Source: Escherichia coli
GTDB taxonomy: Bacteria > Pseudomonadota > Gammaproteobacteria > Enterobacterales > Enterobacteriaceae
Length of the DNA: 64,000 bases
Reading direction: 5' to 3' (one strand)
Assembly: GCF_044324875.1 (NCBI RefSeq)
Contig: NZ_CP172185.1
Under the pieces are notes generated by a model, which was not told the origin of the DNA, did not search any database, and saw nothing but the letters and a program-made list of their open reading frames with translations. Positions 32,353 through 50,826 of the stretch are shown here, piece by piece; position 1 is the stretch's first letter, and each line of letters begins with the position of its first letter. A program made the position numbers and the translations under genes.

Positions 32353-32919
32353 TACTTATTTGGTGGACACCACTTTGTCTAATTCGTCAGATTCTGACCA
32401 GACGGTTCAGGCTGTACGCTTACTGACCTTATCGGTCACCGCGCGGATGGTGGCTGTGGAAACGCTGAAGGCATATAAATCTTCAATCTCCCGACTGATA
32501 TCCTGGTAGCTCATTCCCAGCGCAAACAGGCGAATGATCTTGCGTTCGATCTCATCAGACAACGTGGTCTGGTGCTTCTTCACCAGTTGGGGTTAAAAAG
32601 TACCATTACGATCGCGCGGAGTCGCCAGTTCGAAGCTACCGGTCGGGGCTTTAATGGTCTTTTTGCCGGAGCCATTTTTACGATTGGCTTCCACATCCTG
32701 AGCCAGATGGGATTCAAGCTCTGCAGACAGGGCAGCCTAAGTTAACTGCTTGATTAATGACGTTAAGATTCCATCTTTGCCCGTTAATGCCTAGCCGGAC
32801 TGGAGTGCCTTAAGCGCTTTATCGAAATCGAAGGGTTGGGACATGTGTCATTCCTTTTTGATTGTATATTACTGGAATGACACAGAATTTCTAACACTCC
32901 CTTTTTAGATGAAATATAG

Positions 32920-34780: not shown

Positions 34781-35644
34781 CTAATCGTCTATTTCGGAAA
34801 CCTTCTTATTCAGCAGACGAGAAGCGCGCCAGTAAACCAGCAACATCAGGCCCATTACGATAGTCAGCGTAATGCTGGTGGCTGCACCAAACGGCCAGTC
34901 ACGAATATTGAGGAACTGTACCTTGATGACGTTACCGATCAGCAGGTTTTTCGCACCGCCCATCAGGTCGGACACATAGAACAGGCCCATCGCTGGCAGC
35001 ATCACCAGCAGACATCCGGCAATAATTCCCGGCATCGTCAGTGGGATAATGATGCGGATAAAGGTCTGCAACTTGCTGGCACCGAGATCGCGCGCCGCCT
35101 CAAGCAACGGCTTATCCAGTTTTTCGATACTGGAGTACAGCGGCATCACCATAAACGGTAGCAGAATGTAAACCAGACCGATAATCACCGCACTGGGCGT
35201 GAACATGATGCGAATTGGTGTATCAATAACGCCCAGCCAGAGCAAAAACTCGTTGAGATAGCCTTTGGTGCTGAGGAAAATTTTCAGCCCGTAGATACGA
35301 ATCAATGAGTTGGTCCAGAACGGAACAATCAGCAGAAACAGCAGCAGCGGACGCACCTTGTGTGGCAGCTTCGCCAGAAACCAGGCAAAAGGATAGCCCA
35401 GCACCAGGCAGGCGAGGGTGGCGATCAGCGCCATATTCAGCGAGTGCAATAGCACTTCAAAATAGAGCGGATCGAGCAGACGCGTGTAGTTATCCAGCGT
35501 AAAGACCATTTTGACGAAACTGGCGTCGTCGCGGGTCAAAAAGCTGGTGCCAATGATCATCAGGTTGGGCAGAAAGACAAACAACACAAGCCAACCGACA
35601 ATAGTGACAATCACTACATTCTGGAACTTACTTGTGTTCTTCAT
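34781..35644 (-). CDS. potB: Spermidine/putrescine ABC transporter permease PotB, C-terminal codons differ from the K-12 version as I remember it
   Basis: Matches PotB throughout; K-12 annotated start probably the internal GTG (MIVTIVGW); product here ends ...[12 protein letters not shown] whereas remembered PotB ends ...NKKVELE. Confidence 0.8.
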
Positions 35645-36764
35645 CAGCCAGTACGACCTCCCAGCTTTCTACCCAATTAATGGCCATTTTTTGGTCGAGA
35701 GAGTGGTCAAAGTCAGGATCGTCTTCATTGAAGAATTCGCTGACCATCACCATCTTGCCATTTTCCAGTTCAACAACCGACTCCAGCGTCATGCCTTTGT
35801 AGTTACGCTCGCGAACGTAACCAATCAGCCCTTCAGCGTGGTTGTCGTCGTTAATCTCTTCAACACGTAAGTCTTCCGGGCGCAGCAGAACATGCAGTTT
35901 TTGCCCCGGTTCAACGGCGAAGTTAACGTAGATATTACATTCGCGGCCTTCAACGTTGGCGCGTACGCGCTGCTCGTCTAGACGTTCGATGACAGTGGCG
36001 TTAAACATATTGATTTCGCCAATAAACCCAGCAACAAACAGGTTTTTCGGCTCTTCATAGATTTCACGCGGCGTGCCGTCTTGCTCAATGCGACCATCGC
36101 GCATCACCACAATCCTGTCCGACATGGTGAGTGCTTCTTCCTGGTCGTGAGTCACGAAGACGAATGTAATGCCAAGCTTACGCTGTAACGCTTTCAGCTC
36201 GTTCTGCATTTGCTTGCGCAGTTTGTAATCCAGCGCTGAGAGCGACTCATCCAGCAACAACAGACGAGGCTTGTTAACCACTGCGCGGGCAATGGCGACG
36301 CGTTGCTGTTGACCACCAGAGAGCTGATGCGGTTTGCGTTGAGCGAAGGTTTCCAGCTGCACCATCCGCAGGGCTTCCATCACGCGGGGCGTAATTTCAG
36401 CAGCGGGGGTTTTTTGCATGCGTAACCCAAAGGCCACATTTTCGAACACGGTCATGTGGGGGAAAAGTGCGTAGCTTTGGAAAACAGTGTTCACATAGCG
36501 GTTTTCCGCCGGAACGTGGGTGATGTCCTCGTTATCCAGCATGATGCGTCCGGAATCAACAGTTTCCAGACCTGCAATCAGGCGAAGAACGGTTGTTTTA
36601 CCGCAGCCAGAAGGGCCAAGCAGCGTGAGGAACTCGCCATTGTTGATAGTCAGATCCAGCTGGGGAATGACCTCTTTACCATCAAAGCATTTGCGAATTC
36701 CCGCCAATTGCACCAGCGGTGAAAGCGAACTCGGTTGTTTATTCAATTTTTTACTCTGTCCCAT
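35628..36764 (-). CDS. potA: Spermidine/putrescine ABC transporter ATP-binding protein PotA
   Basis: 378 aa; Walker [10 protein letters not shown], signature [10 protein letters not shown], Walker B LLLDES. Confidence 0.95.
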
Positions 36765-37013
36765 GTAAACGCAACGGATGGCTTACCGATGCGGGGTTTG
36801 TGGTTAACCACCTTGGTGACTCTTAATGAGGGCGGTAATTCTACGGCAAACCGCTTGAATCGCCAATCTTTGTTGTGAATTACTGGCTTAGCTTTATATT
36901 CATTAAGGTAATGCTGATAAATATTCCCGCTTGCAGGGGTAAAAGTGACCTGACGCAATATTTGTCTTTTCTTGCTTCTTAATAATGTTGTCACAAAAAG
37001 TGAGGGTGACTAC

Positions 37014-38240
37014 ATGGATAAACTACTTGAGCGATTTTTGAACTACGTGTCTCTGGATACCCAATCAAAGGCAGGGGTGAGACAGGTTCCCAGCACGGAA
37101 GGCCAATGGAAGTTATTGCATCTGCTGAAAGAGCAGCTCGAAGAGATGGGGCTTATCAATGTGACCTTAAGTGAGAAGGGCACTTTGATGGCGACGTTAC
37201 CGGCTAACGTCCCTGGCGATATCCCGGCGATTGGCTTTATTTCTCATGTGGATACCTCACCGGATTGCAGCGGCAAAAATGTGAATCCGCAAATTGTTGA
37301 AAACTATCGCGGTGGCGATATTGCGCTGGGTATCGGCGATGAAGTTTTATCACCGGTTATGTTCCCGGTGCTGCATCAGCTACTGAGTCAGACGCTGATT
37401 ACCACCGATGGTAAAACCTTGTTAGGAGCCGATGACAAAGCAGGTATTGCAGAAATCATGACCGCGCTGGCGGTATTGCAACAGAAAAACATTCCGCATG
37501 GTGATATTCGCGTCGCCTTTACCCCGGATGAAGAAGTGGGCAAAGGGGCGAAACATTTTGATGTTGACGCCTTCGATGCCCGCTGGGCTTACACCGTTGA
37601 TGGTGGTGGCGTAGGCGAACTGGAGTTTGAAAACTTCAACGCTGCGTCGGTCAATATCAAAATTGTAGGCAATAACGTTCACCCAGGCACAGCGAAAGGT
37701 GTAATGGTGAATGCGCTGTCGCTGGCGGCACGTATTCATGCGGAAGTTCCGGCGGATGAAAGCCCGGAAATGACAGAAGGCTATGAAGGTTTCTATCACC
37801 TGGCGAGCATGAAAGGCACCGTTGAACGGGCCGATATGCACTACATCATCCGTGATTTCGACCGTAAACAGTTTGAAGCGCGTAAACGTAAAATGATGGA
37901 GATCGCCAAAAAAGTGGGCAAAGGGTTACATCCTGATTGCTACATTGAATTGGTGATTGAAGACAGTTACTACAATATGCGCGAGAAAGTGGTTGAGCAT
38001 CCGCATATTCTCGATATCGCCCAGCAGGCGATGCGTGACTGCGATATTGAACCGGAACTGAAACCGATCCGCGGCGGTACCGACGGCGCGCAGTTGTCGT
38101 TTATGGGATTACCGTGCCCGAACCTGTTCACTGGCGGTTACAACTATCATGGTAAGCATGAGTTTGTGACTCTGGAAGGTATGGAAAAAGCGGTGCAGGT
38201 GATCGTCCGTATTGCCGAGTTAACGGCGCAACGGAAGTAA
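37014..38240 (+). CDS. pepT: Peptidase T (tripeptide aminopeptidase)
   Basis: 408 aa from [13 protein letters not shown]20 family metal-binding motifs (HVDT, GADDKAG). Confidence 0.95.
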
Positions 38241-38288
38241 GCGAAAAGGGATGCGGCATGTGATGCCGCATCCGGCTTAAATCCAAAC

Positions 38289-39410
38289 TTACCCTTCGAA
38301 GAACCAATACCCGCTATTGACCAGCGCCGCGAGCATCGCGAGGAATGACGGATCTTCCAGCGCATCGCCAAAATTCTCCGCAGTCAGCGCAATGTTGCTG
38401 GCGAGTGCATCCAGTGCCGGACGGTGCGGGGAATCGATCTTCTCACCATTGGCATACACGTCGTCGCCAATGCGCAATACGCGCAGACCACCCAGACGCA
38501 CCAGCACTTCACCTTGTTTCAGCGCATCGTAGATTTCATCCGGCTGATAAGGCGGCTCTGGCGGCGCGATATCCAGTTCATGGCGTGACTGGGATATAAA
38601 CTCCCCAAACCATTGCTTAAAGTGTTCCGGCTGGTTGATCAATTCGAGCATCATCTCACGCAGTTTATCCATCTCTTGCGGCAGAACATCCGCAGGATGA
38701 GCGCGAGGTGAAACATCAGGATCGCTGTAGTAGTTGCCGCCCAGTTCACGTTGCAGCACATAATCGGCAAATCCGCTAATCAGTTCCCGCGTATTTGGTG
38801 CGCGAAAACCGACGGAATAGTTCATCGCATTTTCCAGCGCGTAGCCTTCATGGGGGAATCCTGGCGGAATATAAAGAATATCGCCTGGCTCCAGTTCTTC
38901 ATCAATGATGGCTTCGAACGGATCAACCTGTAACAGATCCGGGTGCGGGCAGTGCTGTTTCATTTGCAGCTTTTCGCCCACTCGCCAGCGACGACGTCCG
39001 GTACCCTGAATGATAAACACGTCGTACTGATCGAGATGCGGGCCGACGCCGCCGCCAGGTACAGAAAAAGAGATCATCAGATCATCAATACGCCAGTCCG
39101 GTAGTTCACGGAACGGTCGCATCAGCGCGGCGGTCGGCTCATGCCAGTGGTTCACTGCCTGCACTAACAATGACCAGTTAGTTTCACCGAGATGATCGTA
39201 GCTTTCGAACGGGCCGTGGCTGACCTGCCATTTGCCATCCTGGTGGCTGACCAGTCGACTGTCGACTTCGCTTTCCATCGCCAGACCCGCCAACTCGTCT
39301 GGAGAGATCGGGTCAATAAAATTATTAAAGCCGCGTTTTAACACCACCGGACGTTTCTGCCAGTGACGTTCAAGAAAATCGGGCCAGTTAAGAGTGAGTT
39401 GGTATTCCAT
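38289..39410 (-). CDS. roxA: Ribosomal oxygenase RoxA (YcfD), JmjC/cupin family
   Basis: 373 aa from MEYQLTLNWPDFLERHW; synteny with pepT. Confidence 0.9.
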   Translation of the reverse strand: MEYQLTLNWPDFLERHWQKRPVVLKRGFNNFIDPISPDELAGLAMESEVDSRLVSHQDGKWQVSHGPFESYDHLGETNWSLLVQAVNHWHEPTAALMRPFRELPDWRIDDLMISFSVPGGGVGPHLDQYDVFIIQGTGRRRWRVGEKLQMKQHCPHPDLLQVDPFEAIIDEELEPGDILYIPPGFPHEGYALENAMNYSVGFRAPNTRELISGFADYVLQRELGGNYYSDPDVSPRAHPADVLPQEMDKLREMMLELINQPEHFKQWFGEFISQSRHELDIAPPEPPYQPDEIYDALKQGEVLVRLGGLRVLRIGDDVYANGEKIDSPHRPALDALASNIALTAENFGDALEDPSFLAMLAALVNSGYWFFEG

Positions 39411-39611
39411 GTTAAGCATCCACAGGCTGGTATCTGCAACCGATTATAACGGATGCTTAACGTAATGCGTGAAGTATGGGCATACTTTATCAATTAGTGT
39501 TTTTTGCCGTTTCATAATGTTTCAGGTTGTGCATTATGTTTTTGATTATAAACAAATTTGTGATTTTTCTTGTTCCAGCTTGTTTCACGTTGTAGCCCTT
39601 TGTGCAACGAT

Positions 39612-39637
39612 CGGTGTAGTTAATGGTGTAGTTAATT
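39612..39637 (+). repeat. attL core: 26-bp direct repeat cggtgtagttaatggtgtagttaatt
   Basis: Identical copy at 50721-50746; itself contains an internal tandem gtgtagttaat duplication. Confidence 0.8.
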
Positions 39638-40888
39638 GTGATGACCGGATTCAAAATTATGAGCAGAGCACTTAACAAGCTGAGCGATACACAGCTAAGG
39701 AAAATCAACGGCACACCCGCCCAAAAAACAGCCTTTCTTAATGACGGTGGAAACTTGAGCGTCAGGCATTCAACCAGCGGCCTTTTAACCTGGTATTTCA
39801 CTTACAGGGCCGGAACGGGAAGGGGGGCATCACCGGAACGCATTAAGCTGGGAAATTATCCTGATCTGAGCCTGAAATCAGCCAGGGAAAAAGCCGCCCA
39901 GTGTCGCGCATGGCTGGCTGAGGGGAAAAATCCACGTCATGAGATGAATTACACCGTACAGGAAGCGTTAAAGCCTGTAACGGTTGGCGATGCGCTCACC
40001 TACTGGCTTGAGTCGTACGCAAAGGAAAACCGTGTGGATTATGACCCACTGAAAAAGCGGCTAAATAATCACGTAATACAGCACATTGGCCCTATGCCGC
40101 TGGATAAATGCGAGCTACGGCACTGGCTGGCCTGTTTTGATCGGGTGGCAAAGCAAGCCCCTGTTTCCGCCGGGTTCCTGCTACAGACATGCAAACAGGC
40201 GCTTAAGTTCTGCCGGAAGCGGCGCTATGCAATCAGCAACGTTCTTGATGATATGAGTGTGGCTGACGTTGGGAAAAAACCGGATATAGGCGAACGTGTC
40301 TTAAGTACCAAAGAACTGGGCGAATTATTGCAGGCACTGGACAAAAAAATATTTTCCCCTTACTACGTCGCACTAATCCGCCTCCTGATTGTTTTCGGAT
40401 GCCGGACAGTAGAACTGAGGTTATCGGAGATCGGCGAGTGGGATTTTACCGAAATGCTCTGGACCGTTCCGAAGGAGCACAGCAAAACGAAGGTAGCCAT
40501 ATTCCGGCCCATACCGGAAGCGATACTGCCGTTCGTCACGCAGCTGATGGAGCAGAACAGGCACACGGGCTTATTGCTGGGGGAAGTGAAACAGGAAACC
40601 AGCGTGTCGCAGTACGGCAGATTAGTGCACAGGAGGCTTAAACACCCTCACTGGTCACTGCATGACATCCGGCGCACCTTTACAACGATGCTGAACGATT
40701 TAGGCGTGGATCCTCACGTCGTGGAGCAGCTTACAGGCCACCAGATGCCAGGAATGCAGCGAGTTTATAATCATTCCCGTTATCTGGATGCGAAACGCAA
40801 TGCGCTGGATATGTGGACGGAGCGGTTAGGGATACTGGCGGGAGCACATGAAAACGTAACCACGCTACCAGTAACCAGAAGAAAATAA
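39638..40888 (+). CDS. int: Tyrosine-type site-specific integrase (P4-like family)
   Basis: C-terminal catalytic signature (…HDIRRTFTTML…GHQMPGMQRVYNHSRYLD…); true start possibly at MSRALNKLS (39659). Confidence 0.85.
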   Translation: MMTGFKIMSRALNKLSDTQLRKINGTPAQKTAFLNDGGNLSVRHSTSGLLTWYFTYRAGTGRGASPERIKLGNYPDLSLKSAREKAAQCRAWLAEGKNPRHEMNYTVQEALKPVTVGDALTYWLESYAKENRVDYDPLKKRLNNHVIQHIGPMPLDKCELRHWLACFDRVAKQAPVSAGFLLQTCKQALKFCRKRRYAISNVLDDMSVADVGKKPDIGERVLSTKELGELLQALDKKIFSPYYVALIRLLIVFGCRTVELRLSEIGEWDFTEMLWTVPKEHSKTKVAIFRPIPEAILPFVTQLMEQNRHTGLLLGEVKQETSVSQYGRLVHRRLKHPHWSLHDIRRTFTTMLNDLGVDPHVVEQLTGHQMPGMQRVYNHSRYLDAKRNALDMWTERLGILAGAHENVTTLPVTRRK

Positions 40889-40937
40889 TTTTTTTCGTGT
40901 TTTTTCAGTATGCGCATACTGGATAAGTGCACAGATA

Positions 40938-40969
40938 CAACGTGAAACAATAAGCAACAACGTGAAACA
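40938..40969 (+). repeat. Two direct copies of CAACGTGAAACA (candidate integrase arm-type or regulator binding sites)
   Basis: Copies at 40938-40949 and 40958-40969; inverted copies tgtttcacgttg at 39581-39592 (near attL) and tgttccacgttg at 50690-50701 (near attR). Confidence 0.5.
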
Positions 40970-41262
40970 ACCACGAACAAGAGGTCAAAAAGTATACAGA
41001 TTTATAAGTTGCTGATTTTTAATGCTCAACTGGTTTTTTATACATTAGCGAATAACGCTTTAAATAGTGAGAAAAAAGTCATAAAACGAGATTTTATGCC
41101 TTTGCATAATACTGAATTAAAATGATTTTTATTAAAATCACCCCGTTTCTGTAAAATACCCGCCACCAACATTTGCCAACTCTGAATCACCCTGACACAA
41201 TCAGACACATCCCAACGCAATAGAACACGAAATAACTCTTTAAGAAACGAAAGGGGGCAATA

Positions 41263-41451
41263 GTGTTAAGCACTGATCGGTTTATACGTGAAAAAGAATG
41301 CGAAAAGCTAACAGGCCTTAGCCGCTCATGCCGCTACCGCCTGGAAAAGGCCGGACAATTCCCATCACGGCGTAAGCTGGGCGGTCGTTCCGTTGGCTGG
41401 TCTTTATCCGAAGTTCTGGCATGGAAGGAAAGCTGCGAGGCAGTTCACTAA
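41263..41451 (+). CDS. AlpA/Xis-like small DNA-binding protein
   Basis: 62 aa; ...KECEKLTGLSRSCRYRLEKAGQFPSRRKLGGRSVGWSLSEVLAWK matches AlpA-type wHTH. Confidence 0.7.
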   Translation: MLSTDRFIREKECEKLTGLSRSCRYRLEKAGQFPSRRKLGGRSVGWSLSEVLAWKESCEAVH

Positions 41452-41777
41452 AAAGACTGGCGGCACACAGCCGCCACCCATCCACTAATACAGAGATTTA
41501 ACCATGAAGACTGGATATACGCCCGAACAGGGGCGGGGCTTCGTTCGGCCTGGTGAAACTGAAAAACAACAAAATCGCGGTTTTTCAGGCATAAAAAAAG
41601 CGGCCCCGATAAGGAGCCGCCTTTCTGAACAATTAACCTACAGCGCAAAAAATGAATCTGAGCAGTGGGATTATATCAACCGTGCAACGAAGCGCCACAA
41701 TTGCCGGATAACGGGCAAAGAAAAGGCCACCTGTCACGGTGGCCAATGTGATCAGTGTGGTGGCTTGCTGGTGGCTA

Positions 41778-41969
41778 TCAACCTTTGGGTTCTATACCGC
41801 GCCGCTTTAGTTCAGCGCGCCCCAACTCTTTAAGCCAGTTGGCTAGGCTTATGCCGTCGCTCTGCGCTTCTTTGTCGAATTGCTCTTTTAGCTCTGGAGA
41901 AATTCGCATTCTGAATTGTGGGGATTGCCCATCACCCTTAGGGCTTTTATCACGTTTGATTGTTGACAA
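41778..41969 (-). CDS. Arc/MetJ-type ribbon-helix-helix DNA-binding protein (candidate island repressor)
   Basis: 63 aa; FRMRISPELKEQFDKEAQSDGISLANWLKELG; transcribed divergently from the replication operon. Confidence 0.55.
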   Translation of the reverse strand: MSTIKRDKSPKGDGQSPQFRMRISPELKEQFDKEAQSDGISLANWLKELGRAELKRRGIEPKG

Positions 41970-42103
41970 GTGGTCACCTATTAAATTAGCCTTTCTATTG
42001 TTAGGTGGTCACCTTAACACGGGGACACTTAAAAAAGCAAAGCCCGAAGGCGCTAGGAACACCAACGGGCTTCTAACCACAAACCGTTATGAGAGGTAGT
42101 TTT

Positions 42104-42301
42104 ATGGCTGTAAGACAGCATACCCCACGACTAGCGCACACACAAACCGCCTTTGTGTGGCGTTTTCTGGCACTGAGTGCCGGAGAATCTCAAATCATCC
42201 ACGTAACCGCCTGGACGGAACGCGAAGCGCGTAGCCGTTGCCCGTCCGGTTGTGTTGCTGTATTCGCCGCCCGTATTCGTCAGGGGGTGTACCATGATTA
42301 A
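42104..42301 (+). CDS. Small hypothetical protein, first gene of rightward operon
   Basis: 65 aa from ATG 42104 with RBS gagagg; unknown family. Confidence 0.45.
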   Translation: MAVRQHTPRLAHTQTAFVWRFLALSAGESQIIHVTAWTEREARSRCPSGCVAVFAARIRQGVYHD

Positions 42302-42662
42302 CCTGTCACTTACCGATCTTAACCGCGTTCAGTTTCGTGAGAAATTTACCGGACAGCTACTCGTCAATGTGGAGAACGGGCGCATAGTGCGTAATTATCA
42401 CCTGCCGGATGGTGCAATTGCCGGAAGCGTTGAAGCATTGCTGGAACTGGCGGAACGTGCGCGACTGATTAAGCCGTCAACGAGCCATCACGATGATGAT
42501 CTGCATTTTACCGGATGTATGGTGAGTCACTACGAAAACGGCGTCGAGGTATCCTGCGAACGGCTGCGTGATGATTGCTGTTTCGGCACACTGCCGGAAT
42601 TTATCGAATTGCTGACCAGTTGCGGATATCAGGTTATTCAGGGGGTGCGCCATGTGCAATAA
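42294..42662 (+). CDS. Hypothetical protein (122 aa)
   Basis: Start MINLSLTDL overlaps upstream gene end; unknown family. Confidence 0.5.
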   Translation: MINLSLTDLNRVQFREKFTGQLLVNVENGRIVRNYHLPDGAIAGSVEALLELAERARLIKPSTSHHDDDLHFTGCMVSHYENGVEVSCERLRDDCCFGTLPEFIELLTSCGYQVIQGVRHVQ

Positions 42663-43107
42663 CATCCGTCCGGACGCAGCAGGCGAAGCCATCATAACGC
42701 TAATGCACGCGCTGATTGATATTTCATGCACGGCAGCAACCGCAGAAAAACACATTACCAGAGAGCCGGAATATACAGGGGCAATAATCCCGCATTCGCT
42801 GGCCTACGCACAGCTAACCGCTGATATGGCGCTGAATGAGGCTAAAGCCATCCTGATTGCTGATTGTGAAAATGGGGGGGGGGTTATGCGTGATGATCGT
42901 TTTAATTCCCTGAAACAGGAATTTTCCGGCGTTCCTGATAATGCGGCTGATGCGCTTTCGTCAATATCTGAAATTATGCGGGTGGCTTTTTTCTTTCTTT
43001 GCACTGATGAGCACAGGGATACAGGGCTAAATATTCTTGATATCGCCGCTAATTATGCTGATTTCGTAACGGAAACTGTTTTAAGAAAAACGACGGACGG
43101 GGATTAA
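42652..43107 (+). CDS. Hypothetical protein (151 aa)
   Basis: Overlapping start with previous gene; unknown family. Confidence 0.5.
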   Translation: MCNNIRPDAAGEAIITLMHALIDISCTAATAEKHITREPEYTGAIIPHSLAYAQLTADMALNEAKAILIADCENGGGVMRDDRFNSLKQEFSGVPDNAADALSSISEIMRVAFFFLCTDEHRDTGLNILDIAANYADFVTETVLRKTTDGD

Positions 43108-43108
43108 T

Positions 43109-43342
43109 ATGCGTGATATTTACCACGAAACAATAGACCGCGCATTTCTTGCACTTTCTCACAGTGAAAATATGTTGGAAATATTGCGCATATGTCTTGA
43201 AACGCTTGGAGATAATGAACGTGATAAACAGAAATCAATGATTGTCACGGCATTAATAACGCTTCTTGAGCCTGTAATAAATGAGTTGCAGGAAATAGAG
43301 ACATTACACGACCAGTATAAAGCGCCCCACACCGGAGAATAA
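43109..43342 (+). CDS. Hypothetical protein (77 aa)
   Basis: Tightly packed in operon; unknown family. Confidence 0.45.
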   Translation: MRDIYHETIDRAFLALSHSENMLEILRICLETLGDNERDKQKSMIVTALITLLEPVINELQEIETLHDQYKAPHTGE

Positions 43343-43347
43343 AAAAC

Positions 43348-43635
43348 ATGAAAAATAAAAATTCTGGCGTTAATGCCAGCGGCCCCGCTCGTCCTGAAAT
43401 CCGTCCCGGCGATATTTTCCGTGATAACTACGGCGGCACGGTAATGATTAAGGGCGTGGAAGAACGGCGCGTAACCTACCGCCGTGATGGCTACGAATAT
43501 GACTGCGTTATGCCTGTTTATCAGTTCCGGCGTGATTTCACGCTGGTGGGCCATCGTAAAGCCGTTAATCAGAAACGTGCTGCAAGTTATATCCGCAAAA
43601 TCCGTGAAATGCTGGTCGCAGGGGGTAAGAAATGA
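43348..43635 (+). CDS. Hypothetical basic protein (95 aa)
   Basis: Overlaps helicase gene start (ATGA); unknown family. Confidence 0.45.
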   Translation: MKNKNSGVNASGPARPEIRPGDIFRDNYGGTVMIKGVEERRVTYRRDGYEYDCVMPVYQFRRDFTLVGHRKAVNQKRAASYIRKIREMLVAGGKK

Positions 43636-45038
43636 AACTTGCACCGAACGTAAAACTGTTACCGAAAGATAAACACACTGAGGCGGTTATTTTTGCGGGT
43701 GATAATGCTCACTCCTTTGCAGAACATTACATGATTGCACAGGCCAAAAAAGCAGGCGATCCCATCCCTCCGGTTTACCTGGGCCGTTATCAGTTAAGCG
43801 AACTGGACAACTTACAGATTGTTGATGAAGGACGATACAGGGCAAAGGTCATACGCGCCGGAAACCTGGACGATATGCAGATGCTGACCATTGCCACAAA
43901 ACTGGCGATCGCCGGAGTCCAGGAGGCGCGCCTACTTTCTGAAAATTTCGAACTGCTGGAGGACTGGAGCGACCAGCTACCACGACTACGGGAAACATGG
44001 GAGAGAGGGGAAAGCCTGGTCATGAATGGCGGAAAGCGAAAAATCACACTTCCCATCTCATGGGGTTCTGAGGGATTCGATGCGCAGCAAAGCTACGTCA
44101 TTAAGGGGCTTATTCCGGCTGAGTCATTATGCAGCACCTACGGGGCCAGCGGTTCTTATAAATCGTTCCTCGCCATTTCCTGGTCGTGCCATGTTGCCAC
44201 AGGTATGGCATGGGGAGGCCGCAGGGTAAGTAAGGGTGCGGTTATCTATATCGCTGGCGAAGGCAGCATGGGCGTAAAACGCCGCGTTAAGGCGTGGGAG
44301 ATAACCCACGACAAGGTGGTTACAGATTTGTGCATCATTAACGCGCCTGTTTTCCCTGCATCGCCTGACTATGTGGAGCAGGTTATCAGGACTGCCGGAC
44401 TTGTTAAGAGCAGAACGGGCGAAAATGTGCGGCTGATTGTGATCGACACGCTGGCCCGTTGCTTTGGTGGGAATGATGAAAATGATTCCCGTGATATGGG
44501 CGCATTTATCCAGGGGTGTGACGCGATAAAGCAGGCCACAGGGGCCACGGTGCTGGTGGTTCACCATTCCGGCAAGGATGAAACAAAGGGGGCGCGTGGT
44601 TCCAGTGCATTCCGTGCCGCGCTTGATGCAGAGTACCGAATCAGCCGCGAAAATTCAGACGTTACAGCACTGGTCGCAGCATGTACGAAGATGAAGGACG
44701 CAGAGGAGCCAAAAGAGAGCGCATACGACCTTAAAAGCGTGGAGGTGTTCACCGATACAGATGGCGAAGAAATTGTGTCCATGGTGGTGATTGACGTTCC
44801 CCGCGCCCCTGCTGAACTGGAGCGCATCGAGGAGGCAGGCAACAAGACGGAAAACCATACCGCGCTATGGGGGTGCATCCGTTCACGCACACAGAACGGC
44901 GACAAGTGCACGATCCCGCTGTTACGTGATGACATGAAACGGCTTGGGTATGACGTGAAAAATATGCGGCGATGGTTAGCCAAACTGGAAAAAGACGCCG
45001 TGATTTACATTGATGGTGATGATGTAGGACCACTGTAA
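43632..45038 (+). CDS. Replication protein, RecA-fold P-loop ATPase/helicase (RepA/DnaB-like, satellite pri-rep position)
   Basis: 468 aa; P-loop-like YGASGSYKS, Walker-B-like LIVIDTL, followed immediately by iteron cluster. Confidence 0.7.
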   Translation: MKLAPNVKLLPKDKHTEAVIFAGDNAHSFAEHYMIAQAKKAGDPIPPVYLGRYQLSELDNLQIVDEGRYRAKVIRAGNLDDMQMLTIATKLAIAGVQEARLLSENFELLEDWSDQLPRLRETWERGESLVMNGGKRKITLPISWGSEGFDAQQSYVIKGLIPAESLCSTYGASGSYKSFLAISWSCHVATGMAWGGRRVSKGAVIYIAGEGSMGVKRRVKAWEITHDKVVTDLCIINAPVFPASPDYVEQVIRTAGLVKSRTGENVRLIVIDTLARCFGGNDENDSRDMGAFIQGCDAIKQATGATVLVVHHSGKDETKGARGSSAFRAALDAEYRISRENSDVTALVAACTKMKDAEEPKESAYDLKSVEVFTDTDGEEIVSMVVIDVPRAPAELERIEEAGNKTENHTALWGCIRSRTQNGDKCTIPLLRDDMKRLGYDVKNMRRWLAKLEKDAVIYIDGDDVGPL

Positions 45039-45238
45039 AAAGTGAGTAGTAAAAGTGAGTAATGGTGAGGTTTTTACAAAATATTAACACAATTACTCAC
45101 TTTCTCACCTGTATACATGCTCAAAAGTGAGCAGTGAAAAAACACTTATGAAACATGCACATATAAAACACAAAAATCTCAAGTGAGACGAAGTGAGACG
45201 CTTTAAAAAGTGAGTAGTAAAAGTGAGAGATGGTGAGC
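45037..45238 (+). repeat. Iteron cluster, putative island replication origin
   Basis: Multiple aaaagtgag / ggtgag repeats in both orientations around an AT-rich spacer (tttttacaaaatattaacacaatta), directly downstream of helicase gene. Confidence 0.65.
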
Positions 45239-45239
45239 A

Positions 45240-45608
45240 ATGAATAAAAACCGAACAGCAGGACAAAATACCGAAGGTAAATTTATGAACACTGAAATTG
45301 AAACACTGAGCATATCAACTGCCCTTCCTGGCTGGTGGGCTAAGTTCAAAGACGACGACGGCACGGAATGGTATAGCCCAATTGCTGCATGGGCGCTTTG
45401 TGATATCCACCATTTCGGCACCGGAGATACTTACCGCGAAATCTTACCCGTGCTGACCAGTGAGCTGGGCATGAGTCCGCATAGTCCTGATGAGGGAATG
45501 TGCGAGTGCCTTTATCTGCCGGATAAGAAGTTTGTTCACTGTGGTGAATCGATGGTATTTGCCTGGTATCCGGTTAACGACAGCAGCAATAGCGGTACTC
45601 TGGAGTAA
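45240..45608 (+). CDS. Hypothetical protein (122 aa; alternative start at 45285)
   Basis: ORF after ori; unknown family. Confidence 0.45.
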   Translation: MNKNRTAGQNTEGKFMNTEIETLSISTALPGWWAKFKDDDGTEWYSPIAAWALCDIHHFGTGDTYREILPVLTSELGMSPHSPDEGMCECLYLPDKKFVHCGESMVFAWYPVNDSSNSGTLE

Positions 45609-45611
45609 ATC

Positions 45612-45854
45612 ATGAAGGTAAACCACAAAAAGACAGATCACCGCGCCATTGACCTTACAGAGCACTGGCTGAGGGTGGCGATAAAAATCATCGACCGCAA
45701 CACGGGGGAAGGATACGCGAAAGCACATCCCGAACTGATAAGTGCATTCATGACCACAGCGGCGGCAAACTTTGCCACGCTGACAGAGCGGGATATTGCC
45801 GAAGCAGAACAGGTAACAACCATCAACGTTAAAACCAGTGAGGTGGAATCATGA
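45612..45854 (+). CDS. Hypothetical protein (80 aa)
   Basis: ORF overlapping ssb start; unknown family. Confidence 0.45.
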   Translation: MKVNHKKTDHRAIDLTEHWLRVAIKIIDRNTGEGYAKAHPELISAFMTTAAANFATLTERDIAEAEQVTTINVKTSEVES

Positions 45855-46261
45855 CAGCACAGATAGCGGCTTACGGGCGGCTGGTGGACGACCCGCAGGT
45901 AAAACAGACCAGTAAGGGTACACCGATGACGCTGGCGCGTATGGCGGTATCTTTACCATGCGGCCAGGCACAGGACGGACAGGCGACGTTATGGTTATCG
46001 GTCATCGCATTTGGCAAACAGGCCGACTTTCTGGCTAAACATCAAAAAGGCGACGTTGCCAGCGTATCCGGCACGATGCAGGTCAGCCAGTGGACCGGAC
46101 AGAACGGGGAAACGCGGCAGGGTTATCAGGTTATTGCAGACAGCGTAATCAGTGCCCGTGCGGCACGTCCTGGCGGGAACAGACGCAAAACCACAGGCAC
46201 ACAGGGTAATCAGCCACCAGCGGGAGGCGATGACCCTTACGGTGATGATATTCCGTTCTGA
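45851..46261 (+). CDS. Single-stranded DNA-binding protein (short SSB)
   Basis: 136 aa OB-fold-like with Gly/Pro-rich tail ending in acidic DDIPF, as in E. coli SSB. Confidence 0.7.
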   Translation: MTAQIAAYGRLVDDPQVKQTSKGTPMTLARMAVSLPCGQAQDGQATLWLSVIAFGKQADFLAKHQKGDVASVSGTMQVSQWTGQNGETRQGYQVIADSVISARAARPGGNRRKTTGTQGNQPPAGGDDPYGDDIPF

Positions 46262-46271
46262 GGGGGTGACG

Positions 46272-46544
46272 ATGGTACATGACCGCATAGCGGAGGAACT
46301 CGAGGCAAAAGGATTTTACCGGAGGGCGGCGGCGCGATGGGGTGAAGTTATGAGGCTGGTGAGCACTGACAAGGAGCGCGAACAGGTGGCAATGCGACGG
46401 CTGGAATGTTCCCTGAAGGCACAGAGGCCACCGGAGCCGCCGGATGATTTAGGCGCTCTGAAAAGGTCAGTTAATCGCACTGAAAAACAAATGGGGATAG
46501 CTGGTATTGGCAAAGCAATATGGCGCAACTACCCGCAGAAGTGA
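46272..46544 (+). CDS. PerC-family transcriptional regulator homologue
   Basis: 90 aa from MVHDRIAEELEAKGFYRRAAARW (RBS aggggg); resembles PerC/Pch family N-terminus as remembered. Confidence 0.55.
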   Translation: MVHDRIAEELEAKGFYRRAAARWGEVMRLVSTDKEREQVAMRRLECSLKAQRPPEPPDDLGALKRSVNRTEKQMGIAGIGKAIWRNYPQK

Positions 46545-46551
46545 GCACACA

Positions 46552-46573
46552 GCCGGAGCAATCCGGCTTTTTT
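46552..46573 (+). terminator. Rho-independent terminator after perC-like gene
   Basis: gccgga-gcaa-tccggc followed by tttttt. Confidence 0.7.
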
Positions 46574-46585
46574 ACGCCTAAAAAA

Positions 46586-46622
46586 AGCCCGATAAGGTCA
46601 AAGGGGGCTTATCGGGCTTTTG
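46586..46622. terminator. Second hairpin, possibly bidirectional terminator
   Basis: 11-bp stem agcccgataag / cttatcgggct flanked by A-run and T-run. Confidence 0.5.
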
Positions 46623-46784
46623 TAGAGGAGGTTTTTTATGGTGCACTGGCACACATGATCGGGATAATCATTTCATAATTTGCAACATAACTCAATATTG
46701 TTGCGCAAAATGCAATCATGATTATAATCAGGACTGGATGAACATCCAGTTATGATTTTTTAAGTCAAAGAGGAATTTCTGACT

Positions 46785-46991
46785 ATGGCAGAAGAGAAAA
46801 AAGGCGGGGTGACGGTCTACATAAGCCCCGACATCGTGGAGGCGCTCAAGGAACGCCACCAGCAGAATGTAAAAGCAGGCATTGCGGCAGGACTTGATCC
46901 GCTGGCGATGGTTGAGCCGTCAACAGGCTGGCAGGTGCGTACCTATTTACGTGCGGCGCTGGGTATCAATCAGGTTCACGGAGGTGAATAA
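46785..46991 (+). CDS. Small hypothetical protein preceding capsid gene
   Basis: 68 aa; stop overlaps capsid gene ATG. Confidence 0.45.
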   Translation: MAEEKKGGVTVYISPDIVEALKERHQQNVKAGIAAGLDPLAMVEPSTGWQVRTYLRAALGINQVHGGE

Positions 46992-48046
46992 TGACAGGCA
47001 AAGCAAAGGCACTTACAACTAACCAGCTTTTCGCGTACCTGAATCGCGGGGATATTTCGGAATATAAATTTAGTCCGCTGTTTACCACGCTGTTTTTCCC
47101 GAACGTGGCGACCTTCAACACCCAAAACATCATGCTGGACACCCTGGACATTGAAGAGGTTACGATGTCAGCGTTCTGTTCTCCTATGGTGGGTAGTCAG
47201 GTCCAGCGCGATAAAGGGTACGAAACCAGCACGATTAAACCAGGCTACATGAAGCCAAAGCACGAAATCGATCCAACAAAGACCATCATGCGCATGGATG
47301 GAGAAGATCCGGCACAGCTTAACGATCCAACTTACCGCCGTATGCGCCTGATTACTGGCAACATGCGCCGCCAGATAAACGCCATTAAGGCGCGCGTGGA
47401 ATGGCTGGCGGTGAATGCGGTAACGACCGGAAAAAACATCATTGAGGGCGAAGGCATAGAACGCTATGAAATCGACTGGAAAATACCGGAAAACTGCATC
47501 ATACAGCAGGCCAGTGGTAAAAAATGGTCCCAGCAGGATAAAGACATGCACGACCCAATCTATGACATCGAGCTTTATGCTGATCAGGCAGGTTGCCCCG
47601 CCAACGTCATGATTATGGGCGGTGAGGTATGGCGCACATTACGCAGCTTTAAAAAATTCCGTGAACTGTACGATCTTTCCCGTGGATCAGAATCCGCCGC
47701 CGAGCTGGCCTGTAAAAACCTGGGCGAAGTGGTGAGCTTTAAAGGCTATCTTGGTGATCTGGCCCTTATCGTCTATTCCGGCAAATACACTGACAGCGAC
47801 GGGACCGAAAAATATTTCCTTGAGCCTGATTTGCTGGTCCTGGGTAACACCAACAATAAAGGGCTGGTGGCATATGGTGCGATTATGGATCAGGAAGCGG
47901 TAAGAACGGGCGCAACGCAAAACATGTACTACCCGAAAAACTGGATTGAGGACGGCGATCCGGCGATTGAGTACGTGCAGACGCACAGCGCACCGCAGCC
48001 TGTACCGGCAGATATTCGCAAATTTGTTACCGTCAAAATTGCTTAA
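46991..48046 (+). CDS. Lambda gpE-family major capsid protein homologue
   Basis: 351 aa; collinear similarity to lambda E (KFSPLFTTLFF / KFDPLFLRLFF; PGYMKPKHEI / PGYVKPKHEV; DPTYRRMRLI / DPAYRRRRII; YYPKNWIEDGDPAIEY / RYPKNWVTTGDPAREF). Confidence 0.8.
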   Translation: MTGKAKALTTNQLFAYLNRGDISEYKFSPLFTTLFFPNVATFNTQNIMLDTLDIEEVTMSAFCSPMVGSQVQRDKGYETSTIKPGYMKPKHEIDPTKTIMRMDGEDPAQLNDPTYRRMRLITGNMRRQINAIKARVEWLAVNAVTTGKNIIEGEGIERYEIDWKIPENCIIQQASGKKWSQQDKDMHDPIYDIELYADQAGCPANVMIMGGEVWRTLRSFKKFRELYDLSRGSESAAELACKNLGEVVSFKGYLGDLALIVYSGKYTDSDGTEKYFLEPDLLVLGNTNNKGLVAYGAIMDQEAVRTGATQNMYYPKNWIEDGDPAIEYVQTHSAPQPVPADIRKFVTVKIA

Positions 48047-48057
48047 CGGGGGATTCT

Positions 48058-48393
48058 ATGGACGCTCCATACATTGAGTTATTTTCAGGCAGCCAACAGG
48101 TATCCACGACGCTGGTACATTTTGCCGCTGATGCTGGCGTTATTCAGGAATTTACCCCGCTGATGCTGGCAGACAATGGCGAGTTTAAGCCGTGGGATGG
48201 TAAGGAATCTGGCAAGGCTGTTTATCTGACCTCGTACCCTGTGGACACGTCAAAGCAGAAATCAGCACAGTGTTACAAGACGGGGATATTCAATATTGCC
48301 GCCGTTAACTGGCCTGACAGCGTCGACACCGATGCGAAAAAATGCGCCGCCTTTGCGGGTTCCGGCGTATCCGTTCAGCCGCTGGCCCGATAA
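48058..48393 (+). CDS. Lambda gpD-like head decoration protein homologue
   Basis: 111 aa; C-terminal GIFNIAAVNWPDSVDTDAKKCAAFAGSGVSV parallels lambda D [32 protein letters not shown]. Confidence 0.7.
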   Translation: MDAPYIELFSGSQQVSTTLVHFAADAGVIQEFTPLMLADNGEFKPWDGKESGKAVYLTSYPVDTSKQKSAQCYKTGIFNIAAVNWPDSVDTDAKKCAAFAGSGVSVQPLAR

Positions 48394-48467
48394 GCAGGGG
48401 GAACGATGGCACAAACCAGGGCGATGACGGCGACATCTATCGCATACTGAAAACCATCTGAGACAAG

Positions 48468-48490
48468 GCCGGAGAAATCCGGCTTTTTTT
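48468..48490 (+). terminator. Rho-independent terminator after decoration gene
   Basis: gccgga-gaaa-tccggc followed by ttttttt; near-duplicate of terminator at 46552. Confidence 0.7.
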
Positions 48491-48492
48491 GC

Positions 48493-48620
48493 GGGTCCTT
48501 TCCGGCATGTGGACCCGTTACGGGGCGTCGACCTCGCACGTTTTCGCTATTTATGAAAATTTTCCGGGAAAAAGCATGTCAGTTCTTCTTGTTATTAACA
48601 TATTGTTTTTAAAGAAATAA
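48493..48620 (+). promoter_or_regulatory. Lambda-type cos site (cosQ/cosN/cosB-like) upstream of terS
   Basis: gttacggggcgtcgacctcgcacgttttcgctatttatgaaaattttccgg closely matches remembered lambda cos (gttacggggcggcgacctcgcgggttttcgctatttatgaaaattttccgg); putative cosN gggcgtcgacct at 48523-48534. Confidence 0.75.
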
Positions 48621-48710
48621 CTATCAAGAAAGAAACGACATCATAATGATGAAAAATCTGTTTTTTTTGGCATTTCATGTCGTAACTGATTTTTGATAAG
48701 GAATTGCTGA

Positions 48711-49295
48711 ATGAATGTTAATAAAAAGAGGCTTGCCGAAATTTTTAACGTGGACCCGCGGACGATTGAACGCTGGCAGTCACAGGGGCTTCCTTGCGTC
48801 TCCAAAGGCAGTAAGGGCATTGAATCTGTATTTGATACTGCCATGGCAATTCAGTGGTATGCGCGGAGGGAAACTGATATCGAAAACGAAAAGCTCCGCA
48901 AAGAACTGGACGATTTGCGTGCGGCAGCGGAGTCAGATTTACAACCCGGCACCATTGACTATGAACGCTATCGGCTCACAAAAGCGCAGGCAGATGCGCA
49001 GGAACTTAAAAACGAGCGCGATCGCGGTGACGTGATTGATACAGAGTTTTGCATGTACGCGCTTTCAAAACTGGCGAGTCAGATTTCATCAATCATGGAC
49101 AGCCTCCCGCTTACTATGCAAAGGAGCTTCCCACAGATGACCCCCGCCATGCTGGATGGCCTGAAAAAAGAAGTTGTCAGAGCCTGTAACGCATGCACAA
49201 AACTTGATGAAAACATCCCGCGAATGCTGTCCGATTATCTGATGGAAACTACCGGAAATGTGCCTGATAAGTTTCAGCCGGATAAAGACAAGTAA
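48711..49295 (+). CDS. Terminase small subunit, lambda Nu1-like
   Basis: 194 aa; [28 protein letters not shown]...[29 protein letters not shown] parallels lambda Nu1 (MEVNKKQLADIFGASIRTIQNWQEQGMP...[29 protein letters not shown]). Confidence 0.85.
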
Positions 49296-49536
49296 CGTAG
49301 TGCACAATGACCGAAGCCAGTTTACTGACTGGCTTTCAGCGTTGCGCTGGTGGGCGTTATGCGTCAGTGATAAACGTCTCCAATATTACTGATATTCGAC
49401 ATCCCCACCTCTCCACACCAGCTCGAATATCATTTTTCTCATTAAAAACAGGACATTAAAAACTGGTCAGATGTCCCATAAAAAGCCAAATGGGACAGGT
49501 CAAAAGCTTTTTTTGCAGTAATTTTCAATAGGTTAC

Positions 49537-49935
49537 TTGATGTGGTGGTGTCCCATGAAAATTCAAAAATCAGCCGTTTTCCGCGATGCTCCCGCCCCGT
49601 GGCAGGGCACCCCACAAGGAGGACCCGCCATCACTATGGAGGACATGACCATGACCGAGACCGAAGCGCTCGGGATAATCCGCAGTATTACCGGAATCAG
49701 CCAGCAGGCTGGCGAACAGGAGGCCACGCAGCCGGACAGCGTGATCGCCGAAAATTACGTGCGTGTTGTTGCTGATGTAATGCGCCGTGATGGTATTGAG
49801 CTTAACGGCGTGGATATGCGCGACATACGAATCAGAGTACTAGAGTTGCTGGCATACCGTCGACGCGTGGCGATGTATCAGGAGAGCGCGAAAAACACTT
49901 ATCAGTGGAAGAAGCCGGAGCGGTTACGGCGGTAA
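49537..49935 (+). CDS. Hypothetical protein downstream of terS (likely shorter, start near 49651)
   Basis: ORF of 132 aa; RBS ggagg favours ATG around 49651 giving about 95 aa; unknown family. Confidence 0.4.
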   Translation: MMWWCPMKIQKSAVFRDAPAPWQGTPQGGPAITMEDMTMTETEALGIIRSITGISQQAGEQEATQPDSVIAENYVRVVADVMRRDGIELNGVDMRDIRIRVLELLAYRRRVAMYQESAKNTYQWKKPERLRR

Positions 49936-50290
49936 CTGGTTGATATTTTCGAAATTCGCCAGCGGCGAACATCGGGGAAACCAGCCTAACCAGTTGATTC
50001 TTTCGGAAACAGCCATTGGCGGAATCCGGCGCGGTAACTTGCTGATATTCCCGATAACGCAAAATTGCGCTGGCTACATCCCTCACATCTGAGGACTGAT
50101 AATGCGACATTGCGCTGGCTGGCAAAGTGCAAAATTGCACGATGGCCTAACCCATTGATTATTTCGAAAACCTGCAATGCAGGAAATCGGGGAAGTAAGC
50201 CTAAGCTATTGATTCTTTCGGAAACCTCAATTTGAGGAAGTCGGCGCGGTAACTCGCTGAACTTAAAGCAAACCTCAAAATTGAGCTGGC
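49932..50290 (+). repeat. Array of four degenerate repeats of a ttgattctttcggaaac-like motif with associated short palindromes
   Basis: Motif variants ggttgatattttcgaaat (49938-), cagttgattctttcggaaac (49991-), cattgattatttcgaaaac (50154-), ctattgattctttcggaaac (50205-); cggcgcggtaact at 50028 and 50242. Confidence 0.6.
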
Positions 50291-50720
50291 TGAATAATCA
50301 TTATGATTACGCAGATGATTAAGGAATGACCGAAGGCGGAAATTCGCCTGTGGTTGATGGGGGAGTTGCAGATCTGCAACTCGACCATGAAACTACGGAA
50401 ACTACCCGTAGTTTGGGTAGTAAGAGTAACACCCAGATTTTGGGACTTACTCGTGATACCCAAATTTGGAGTATCGGTGGCAACCATAACGACTTTCGTT
50501 ACGGTTGATGCTTTTACCCCATTGGGGGAAAGGTATTACGATAATCATAACACCTACCGAACAGGTAAAGCCCACCAGCCTGATTGACATTTAACCGGAA
50601 AAAAAGCCAGGTAGCCCCGTTATGTGGATCCCCATATCGACAGCAACGCCCCCTTAAAATTACCCGCCTTTATATTTCTTGTGCCTATTTGTTCCACGTT
50701 GTTTCATACAGTGCGCCGAA

Positions 50721-50746
50721 CGGTGTAGTTAATGGTGTAGTTAATT
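50721..50746 (+). repeat. attR core: second copy of 26-bp direct repeat
   Basis: cggtgtagttaatggtgtagttaatt identical to 39612-39637. Confidence 0.8.
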
Positions 50747-50826
50747 TGCGATTTTTGGCACTTTTGTTTGTGTATATTTTTAATTAAATCAATACATTAA
50801 CTAATATCGGTGATAAAAGGGCATAT

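Follow-up and report, generated by a model that had tools for sequence, protein, structure and literature searches.

The window, a 64,000-nt stretch of Escherichia coli DNA, carries an 11.2-kb phage satellite between a roxA/ycfD-like gene (38289-39419) and phoQ (50827-52287, minus strand). An initial annotation had placed a degenerate repeat array and a palindrome-dense segment between the packaging genes and the attR site of this element, and a non-coding stretch, 49932-50520, does occupy that position, downstream of the last satellite gene. Its first part, 49933-50291, is an array of six full units of 48-54 nt (U1 to U6) plus truncated units, in tandem and in the same orientation. Clear homology links five of the six full units, on the opposite strand, to the same internal segment of the rha/roi family of phage regulator genes, in each case to a different allele and with the palindrome of that allele. 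We describe the array and discuss the possibility that it is a set of binding sites for these regulators and for integration host factor (IHF).

Each unit consists of TAA-N4-YTGAT, a spacer of ~10 nt (TTTCGGAAA, TTCCCGATAA or TTAAAGCAAA), a variable palindrome of 11-15 bp (arms of 5-6 bp, centre of 1-3 bp) and a short G-rich tail. The minus-strand reading of TAA-N4-TTGATW gives the IHF core consensus, WATCAANNNNTTR. Perfect cores lie at 49933, 49987, 50148 and 50202 (minus strand), all in one orientation, and account for four of the ten found in the window on both strands; U3 (50035) and U6 (50250) have relaxed matches. On the minus strand, the A-rich tract upstream of WATCAA (CGAAAGA, CGAAATA or CGAAAATA) supplies the A/T-rich element of an IHF site. 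Four copies of a TTGATTCTTTCGGAAAC-like motif had been recognised before, each followed by a palindrome, and all are in place: the motif is exact at 49994 and 50209, has two mismatches at 50155 and is more diverged at 49941, and the palindromes after it are TTCGCCAGCGGCGAA, GCCATTGGC (~50012-50020), CCTGCAATGCAGG and CCTCAATTTGAGG (Table 1). Two more full units (beginning at 50035 and 50250), the truncated units, the perfect IHF consensus within the motif and the rha/roi homology had escaped notice. The modules of 50081-50147 recur in related islands. Tandem Repeats Finder reported only the att repeat and not the array units, because these are too diverged. A CRISPR (clustered regularly interspaced short palindromic repeats) array was considered and rejected: instead of identical repeats and unique spacers there are constant parts with only ~60-90% similarity and variable palindromes of 11-25 nt, and cas genes are absent.

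The palindrome pattern of 49932-50520 is far beyond chance. Counting perfect palindromes with arms of at least 5 and a centre of at most 4, we found 20, which together cover 170 nt; 300 dinucleotide-preserving shuffles gave 3.1±2.0 palindromes over 31 nt, and none exceeded 10 palindromes or 85 nt. This is the top-ranked 589-nt stretch for palindromes in the whole 64 kb. The earlier description of a palindrome-dense stretch devoid of a convincing open reading frame (ORF) therefore holds, down to two further palindromes that it named, GTTGCAGATCTGCAAC, inside the 20-bp palindrome at 50363-50382, and CCAAATTTGG (50460-50469). No conserved or credible ORF was found in the array region. The minus-strand ORFs there are artefacts of the homology of the units, and coding potential was rejected since only Roi residues 42-57 match, in reiterated form, with stops and frame changes between units. 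RNA folding, one of the checks proposed at the outset, gave energies far better than those of shuffled sequences on both strands (z-scores of -7.0 for the plus and -10.0 for the minus strand). Another, a covariance-model search, came out negative: no Rfam family, including the C4 and CI antisense RNAs, matched at E<=1 on either strand of 35000-52000. Promoter-like and terminator-like sites, for which the region was scanned, were not enriched.

The identities between units and phage modules range from 81% to 94% over 35-48 nt and involve at least nine phage alleles; the palindrome specific to each allele stands at a fixed distance from the IHF core. The longest match is that of U5: BLAST aligns it at 45/48 identical positions, and local alignment at 43/45, with an internal part of the roi gene of HK620, H-19B, HK75, HK140, CUS-3 and many Shiga toxin (Stx) phages. 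U4, with palindrome CTGCAATGCAG, matches an internal segment of CP-1639 roi at 36/40 positions. U2 is identical at 37/45 to p14 of phiP27 ('Ant', a Roi paralogue), both having the palindrome AGCCATTGGCGG, and U1 at 35/43 to an internal segment of the gene for a 'DNA-binding protein' of Stx2_EH2201, also a Roi paralogue, with the palindrome CGCCATTGGCG (TCGCCAGCGGCGA in U1). U6, with palindrome CTCAAAATTGAG, resembles the L-N-F-E segment of the Rha gene of Klebsiella phage ST15-VIM1phi2.1 (29/35), and its sister unit in other satellites, AGCGCAAAATTGCGCT, matches the Rha-like regulator of P13374-type Stx2a phages. The palindrome of U3 corresponds to the R-N-F-A codons of Rha-type alleles; the best phage matches of this unit are weak (28/37 for P22 rha, 29/37 for P13374 Rha), and its type of flank was seen in satellites only. 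Units of other satellites match JLK-2012 roi (palindrome TCCTCAAATTGAGGA, spacer CTTCCACAAT) and the DNA-binding protein gene of Stx1_14040 (palindrome TTCCACAGACTGTGGAA). In CP-1639, roi is split into two ORFs (1207-1374 and 645-866); the frameshift that separates them is in the unit itself, where a T-run (TTGATTTTTTTCGAAAAC) comes directly after the palindrome.

What is reiterated is one segment of ~50 nt out of a roi/rha-type gene of ~720 nt, the rest of which was not retained. The array is non-coding and so does not lie within a regulator's own coding sequence; the window contains no roi or rha gene, and only Roi residues 42-57 find similarity in it, repeatedly. A scan of viral contigs with a 17-mer returned mostly chance matches, plus roi genes, and a locus search with an alignment of the Roi N terminus returned 80 near-identical alleles of HK620 type, which are uninformative on diversity. 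The suggestion that the stretch is decayed cargo is unlikely in view of a single gene segment taken from several alleles, set in one orientation, with palindromes intact or extended.

In the phage genes themselves, the residues encoded over the palindrome differ completely between alleles (LPQIEV, LPALQV, KPPMAV, SAPMAN and FPQTVE), yet the DNA is palindromic in all of them, with arms of up to 9 bp within the coding sequence. In Rha-type alleles the palindrome is centred on conserved N-F codons, and in the Rha genes examined for this (P13374 Rha, the Klebsiella phage Rha and cdtI orf44) the flanking residues are encoded by reverse-complement codon pairs: CGC/GCG (R/A), CTC/GAG (L/E) and CAC/GTG (H/V). 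The encoded residues differ and the DNA stays palindromic: the phage palindromes are under selection at the nucleotide level. A palindrome kept inside an ORF by reverse-complement codon pairs is an unusual constraint, of interest for the evolution of overlapping codes.

HK022 Roi reportedly inhibits growth in IHF mutants, and it is said to bind a site in its own gene that is closely linked to an IHF site, IHF stabilising the binding. The module described here is consistent with such a site. Across 7 kb of the HK022 P-Q-lysis region there is a single perfect IHF core; it is in roi, 13 nt from CTGCATTGCAG, which is the palindrome of U4. P22 rha carries CGCATTTTTGCG, then TTTCCGAAAAAATCAATAACTTAGG. 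In PMC4936722, with reference to Mozola & Friedman 1985 and Henthorn & Friedman 1995, the rha of φ80 and P22 is described as harming lytic growth when IHF is absent and as being regulated by IHF.

The same last satellite gene (PHROG 1561), followed by a comparable non-coding tail, is found in satellites with E/D-type capsid genes at other integration sites (for example cspD/clpS) and in the HK97-type capsid-forming phage-inducible chromosomal island (cf-PICI) that adjoins phoQ in O157:H7 (EcCIEDL933 type). The element is common, with matches to parts of the region in 1611 of the 5426 complete E. coli genomes compared; since at least 80% of it is covered in only three of them, the tail is a shuffled mosaic. 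To analyse conservation we used 47 distinct satellite tails, retrieved through the PHROG 1561 gene. They hold from one to six or more units each and ~20 different palindromes. The IHF core occurs 47 times in the orientation seen in the window and 6 times in the opposite one, ~30-fold above background. When units were detected by YTGA and a palindrome, TAA not being required, the TAA and TTGAT positions proved conserved and N4 variable (58 distinct units). The satellite palindromes are intact and often longer or more perfect than the phage versions, with arms of up to 12 bp, and unit register and orientation are uniform across the 47 islands. Among related islands the IHF core and the palindromic symmetry of the units are kept, and their copy number varies.

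Table 1. Coordinates of the array units, the downstream hairpin modules and the other satellite features in the window
Feature	Position	Strand	Details
U1	49933..49986	+	IHF-like core TAACTGGTTGATA, spacer TTTTCGAAA, palindrome TTCGCCAGCGGCGAA 49955-49969
U2	49987..50034	+	TAACCAGTTGATT, TTGATTCTTTCGGAAAC, then palindrome AGCCATTGGCGG
U3, type B	50035..50082	+	TAACTTGCTGATA, TTCCCGATAA, palindrome CGCAAAATTGCG 50058-50069, then CTGGCT
Palindrome CCTCACATCTGAGG	50081-50094	+	in segment 50081..50147
Two truncated units	within 50081..50147	+	no IHF core; TGCGACATTGCGCTGGCT and GTGCAAAATTGCAC (50127-50140)
U4	50148..50201	+	TAACCCATTGATT, ATTTCGAAAA, palindrome CCTGCAATGCAGG 50171-50183
U5	50202..50249	+	TAAGCTATTGATT, CTTTCGGAAA, palindrome CCTCAATTTGAGG 50225-50237
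U6, type B	50250..50291	+	TAACTCGCTGAAC, TTAAAGCAAAC, palindrome CTCAAAATTGAG 50274-50285, then CTGGCT
Palindromic module	50295-50325		TAATCATTATGATTA-CGCAG-ATGATTA, in segment 50293..50350
Palindromic module	50334-50349		AGGCGGAAATTCGCCT
Hairpin module, ~116 nt	50363..50478	+	20-bp perfect palindrome GAGTTGCAGATCTGCAACTC, hairpins around AAACTACGG/AAACTACCCGTAGTTTGGGTAGT, long hairpin GTAAGAG...CTTACTC...GATACCCAAATTTGGAGTATC
Hairpin and unit-like sequence	50481..50530		hairpin CAACCATAACGACTTTCGTTACGGTTG (CAACCATAACGA...TCGTTACGGTTG), unit-like TTGATGCTTTTA-CCCCATTGGGG
attL copy of 75-nt direct repeat	39563-39637
Integrase gene	39638-40888
Primase-helicase gene	43632-45038
SSB gene	45851-46261
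λ gpE-like major capsid protein gene	46991-48046
gpD-like decoration protein gene	48058-48393
λ-like cosN	48523-48534	+	GGGCGTCGACCT, then CGCACGTTTTCGCTATTTATGAAAAT; upstream of terS, as in λ
Nu1-like small terminase gene terS	48711-49295
PHROG 1561 gene, last of satellite	49651-49935	+	94 aa; stop TAA is the first TAA of U1
attR copy of 75-nt direct repeat	50672-50746	+	includes GGTGTAGTTAAT twice

Downstream of the units, 50293-50530 is a set of conserved hairpin modules separate from the unit array. In other islands (L192, L002 and others) the counterpart of TAATCATTATGATTA-CGCAG-ATGATTA in 50293-50350 is TGGTCATAATGACCA-CGCAG-ACCATCA; between the two versions the arms of the palindrome co-vary with a third copy downstream. 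The modules of this part, 50363-50478 and 50481-50530 among them, are kept, with few changes, in ~20 related islands. The consensus fold of 50363-50478 has 37 pairs, is 98.6% paired and includes one compensated pair, and its one-sided changes are all compatible with G·U pairing on the plus strand. Covariation in this module is weak and not significant, 39 of 500 shuffles scoring as high. Within it, AAACTACGG-AAACTACCCGTAGTTTGGGTAGT (50392-50421) can form two mutually exclusive hairpins, ACTACGG/CCGTAGT or ACTACCC/GGGTAGT, and is conserved in ~20 islands. BLAST of 50300-50640 against phages gave no match. Esr41 and other O-island small RNAs were considered and are unrelated to the array locus.

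The satellite has its own genes for a λ E-like capsid protein, a D-like decoration protein and TerS, and lacks portal, protease and TerL genes. Its cosN differs from that of λ at one position, and the sequence that follows (window 48500-48560) is nearly identical to the left end of λ. Wherever the array was seen, the PHROG 1561 gene comes before it; the gene is common to cf-PICIs and satellites with E/D-type capsids. No match to its product was found in Pfam, NCBIfam or the PDB; the AlphaFold2 model has three helices at moderate confidence (predicted local distance difference test score 70.6), and the 948 homologues, all annotated 'hypothetical', all come from Escherichia and Shigella.

Several other sequence elements were seen in these satellites. 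Two 37-nt copies, 92% alike and rich in AAAGTGAG iterons, lie directly after the primase-helicase gene at 45033-45069 and 45201-45237, flanking the gap before ORF 45240-45608, and look like the replication origin of the satellite. We considered the array itself as origin iterons and rejected this, given these separate iterons next to the primase gene and the distance of 5 kb to the array. Near-identical GC hairpins with T runs (ACAnnGCCGGAGnAATCCGGCTTTTTT) at 46547-46573, after ORF 46152-46544, and at 48463-48489, after the decoration gene, are likely intrinsic terminators or attenuators within the late operon. A 20-nt tandem repeat, ACAACGTGAAACAA(TAAGCA/CCACGA), directly downstream of the integrase gene (40937-40976) could serve the satellite as an operator or other regulatory site. 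In four related islands (L131, L140, L142 and L192), three to five GTGAC(A) motifs at 10-11-nt spacing (for example GGTGACATACTGTGACGGAGAGTGACAACCAGTGACACACAGTGACA) replace the units or are added to them, at ~10-60 nt and 280-450 nt from the end of the PHROG 1561 gene, which suggests a phased binding site for another protein. Island L146 has an apparent second Nu1-like terS reading frame after the PHROG 1561 gene (~3560-3900), suggesting tandem or nested satellites.

The interpretation that we favour, with a probability of roughly 0.45, is that 49933-50291 is a multi-allelic array of Roi/Rha operators and IHF sites that would act at the DNA level, titrating or sensing phage regulators. The initial annotation had offered a multi-site operator or a Nu1/IHF-type array as one option; its operator and IHF part agrees with the IHF core and the allele-specific palindrome in each unit, whereas its Nu1 part is at odds with the location of cosN. 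That Roi/Rha and IHF bind the units, and what would follow from binding, we infer. On this view the satellite has gathered modules from several rha/roi alleles. When a phage that encodes Roi or Rha is active in the cell, IHF and Roi/Rha dimers could assemble on the cognate units of the replicating satellite, and the multicopy array would then serve as a multi-allelic decoy or docking platform, titrating or sensing growth-inhibitory phage regulators. Selection at the DNA level is suggested because the IHF bases and the symmetry are conserved, the palindromes have been improved, the remainder of the source genes was not retained, and register and orientation are uniform.

Several observations weigh against this interpretation. 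The palindrome centres vary from 1 to 4 nt and the arms reach 12 bp, which fits a hairpin or cruciform at least as well as a fixed dimer operator, and the strict one-strand orientation is also predicted by an RNA function. U3-type units, CCCAAAAATGGG and CAGCCAACGGCTG have no phage counterpart in the database. Titration of IHF itself is implausible, because IHF is abundant. The region of HK106 that covers immunity, nin and lysis (30000-41468, early and late region) contains no roi/rha homologue; its sole perfect IHF core lies near 30147. Experiments have proved HK106 to be a helper of the O157 cf-PICI, an island with such an array, and this island was reported not to interfere with its helpers (bioRxiv 10.1101/2022.09.08.507074). 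It follows from the HK106 region that the array is not needed for induction by HK106 and is not an induction sensor for that helper. The O157 island was induced by none of 17 resident prophages (bioRxiv 10.1101/2022.09.08.507074), and its units match alleles of Stx-phage regulators. If functional, the array is more probably directed against other phages, co-resident or competing.

A serious alternative, though one of low probability, is an array of antisense or structured RNA. Read-through of the late operon would yield plus-strand hairpins complementary to rha/roi mRNAs, silencing or destabilising them. Control could be by kissing loops, as with P1 c4 or P22 sar against ant, and the same RNA might extend into the downstream hairpin module. 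In keeping with this, the units run antisense to roi when taken in the direction of the satellite operon (47 versus 6), with complementarity of up to 45/48, and nothing but a weak terminator-like hairpin (49921-49938) stands between the last gene and the array. The strong folding (z = -7), the G·U-compatible one-sided changes on the plus strand of 50363-50478, and the variable centre lengths and long arms of the palindromes also suit hairpins. The lack of an Rfam family at E<=1, of promoter or terminator enrichment and of significant covariation speaks the other way, and for most units identity to the nearest allele found is no more than 81-89%. Moreover, conservation falls on the IHF bases and on symmetry, and the palindromes are more perfect than those of the phages, unlike what selection for pairing with mRNA would produce. 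Satellites might keep a Cas-independent, array-type 'catalogue' of ~50-bp fragments from within the rha/roi genes of many phages, used either as allele-specific decoy operators or as multi-target antisense RNA, an idea that we put forward as speculative. With such a catalogue, the growth-inhibitory regulators of co-resident or competing phages would be neutralised, so that satellite and helper could complete the lytic cycle.

Somewhat less probable still is a structural mosaic resembling bacterial interspersed mosaic elements (BIMEs) or repetitive extragenic palindromic (REP) sequences, for which the likeness to rha/roi would reflect origin only. As a bidirectional insulator or terminator, or as a stabiliser of mRNA 3' ends, it would work at the junction of the satellite's last gene with phoQ, which is transcribed towards it. 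The location suits such a role, as do the many palindromic modules in mosaic arrangement, their variable copy number among islands and the strong folding of both strands; E. coli BIME-1 elements, also called repetitive IHF-binding palindromic (RIP) elements, combine palindromes with an IHF site. The array, however, has no REP consensus, its palindromes are direct rather than alternating, the hairpins lack T-runs after them and there is no enrichment of terminator-like sites. A generic structural role also does not explain allele-specific matching to at least nine phage alleles.

The units might also be recombination scars or homology patches, either leftovers devoid of function from repeated exchange between satellites and co-resident lambdoid prophages at a recombinogenic IHF and palindrome site, or no more than ~50-bp substrates of Red/RecET type; we find this improbable. 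The arrays are indeed highly mosaic and include hybrid palindromes (for example GCTCAAAATTGCGC). The matched alleles belong to prophages, of Stx and other kinds, that are frequent in the same lineages of E. coli; roi is a mosaic junction too, and in CP-1639 the break falls exactly at the unit. Neutral scars should decay, yet the IHF core and palindromes are preserved or improved; no other part of roi/rha was ever retained, and orientation and unit register are uniform in 47 islands. Compared with the operator array that we favour, both this and the BIME-like explanation are weaker at accounting for why the matches are allele-specific and why the core is preserved. A packaging site, that is, a cosB-like array binding Nu1/TerS and IHF, is hardly credible: IHF sites with repeats do typify λ cosB and the island does encode a Nu1-like TerS, but the λ-like cosN lies upstream of terS (and presumably cosB as well) while the array is 1.4 kb away downstream of it, and the same array follows a different packaging system, the P27-type TerS/TerL/HNH module, in cf-PICIs.

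Satellites such as PICIs and cf-PICIs are known to hijack their helpers through proteins and through cos or pac sites. A reiterated, multi-allelic set of regulator-binding modules taken from inside phage genes was not described in the literature searched. If the array does bind Roi/Rha and IHF, a function would be assigned to Rha/Roi, a widespread and poorly understood family of temperate phages, and the site behind the 40-year-old 'Rha phenotype' would be explained at the sequence level. It would also add a new layer to the conflict among phages, satellites and prophages in enterohaemorrhagic E. coli lineages, whose Stx phages carry these genes. The catalogue, if real, would be a new class of satellite-phage interaction built on captured cis-elements.

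Comparison with known systems places the array among several families of cis-acting elements. Like λ cosB (R3-I1-R2-R1) and the PICI cos sites (Rpp-TerS), it is a cis array in which an IHF site is joined to repeated elements that derive from a helper or imitate those of one; unlike them, it is not beside cosN, lies on the other side of terS and is shared with cf-PICIs of HNH/P27 type. With E. coli BIME-1/RIP (reiterative IHF BIME, RIB) it shares mosaics of reiterated extragenic palindromes with an IHF consensus at operon 3' ends, but it has no REP (palindromic unit, PU) consensus, is directly oriented, has variable palindromes of phage origin and is restricted to satellites. The antisense immunity RNAs of P1/P7 (c4), P22 (sar) and P4 (CI) resemble it in their satellite position, in their hairpins and in being antisense to a gene of the Ant/KilAC family. 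In contrast to these RNAs, it has no Rfam C4 match, its target would be in another genome and exist as multiple alleles, and no processing signals were recognised in it.

The loci P1 incA and E. coli datA, the latter with an essential IHF site, are also clusters of regulator sites, with IHF, for which sequestration has been proposed; in the satellite, the sites would be for heterologous phage regulators of several specificities, and titration is putative. In the P22/φ80 rha genes (Phage_pRha family), P22 rha has the same module and the type-B units share the N-F-centred palindromes of Rha alleles, although the flanks of these units have diverged and their IHF core is relaxed (YTGAW). Finally, the intragenic site reported for HK022 roi is alike over the whole ~50-bp module, with a palindrome, ~12 nt and then WATCAANNNNTTR; U4 carries the HK022/CP-1639 palindrome and U5 that of HK620/H-19B. 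The phage roi/rha module is present in one copy within a coding sequence, whereas the satellite, which encodes no Roi, has six or more non-coding copies in tandem, drawn from several alleles.

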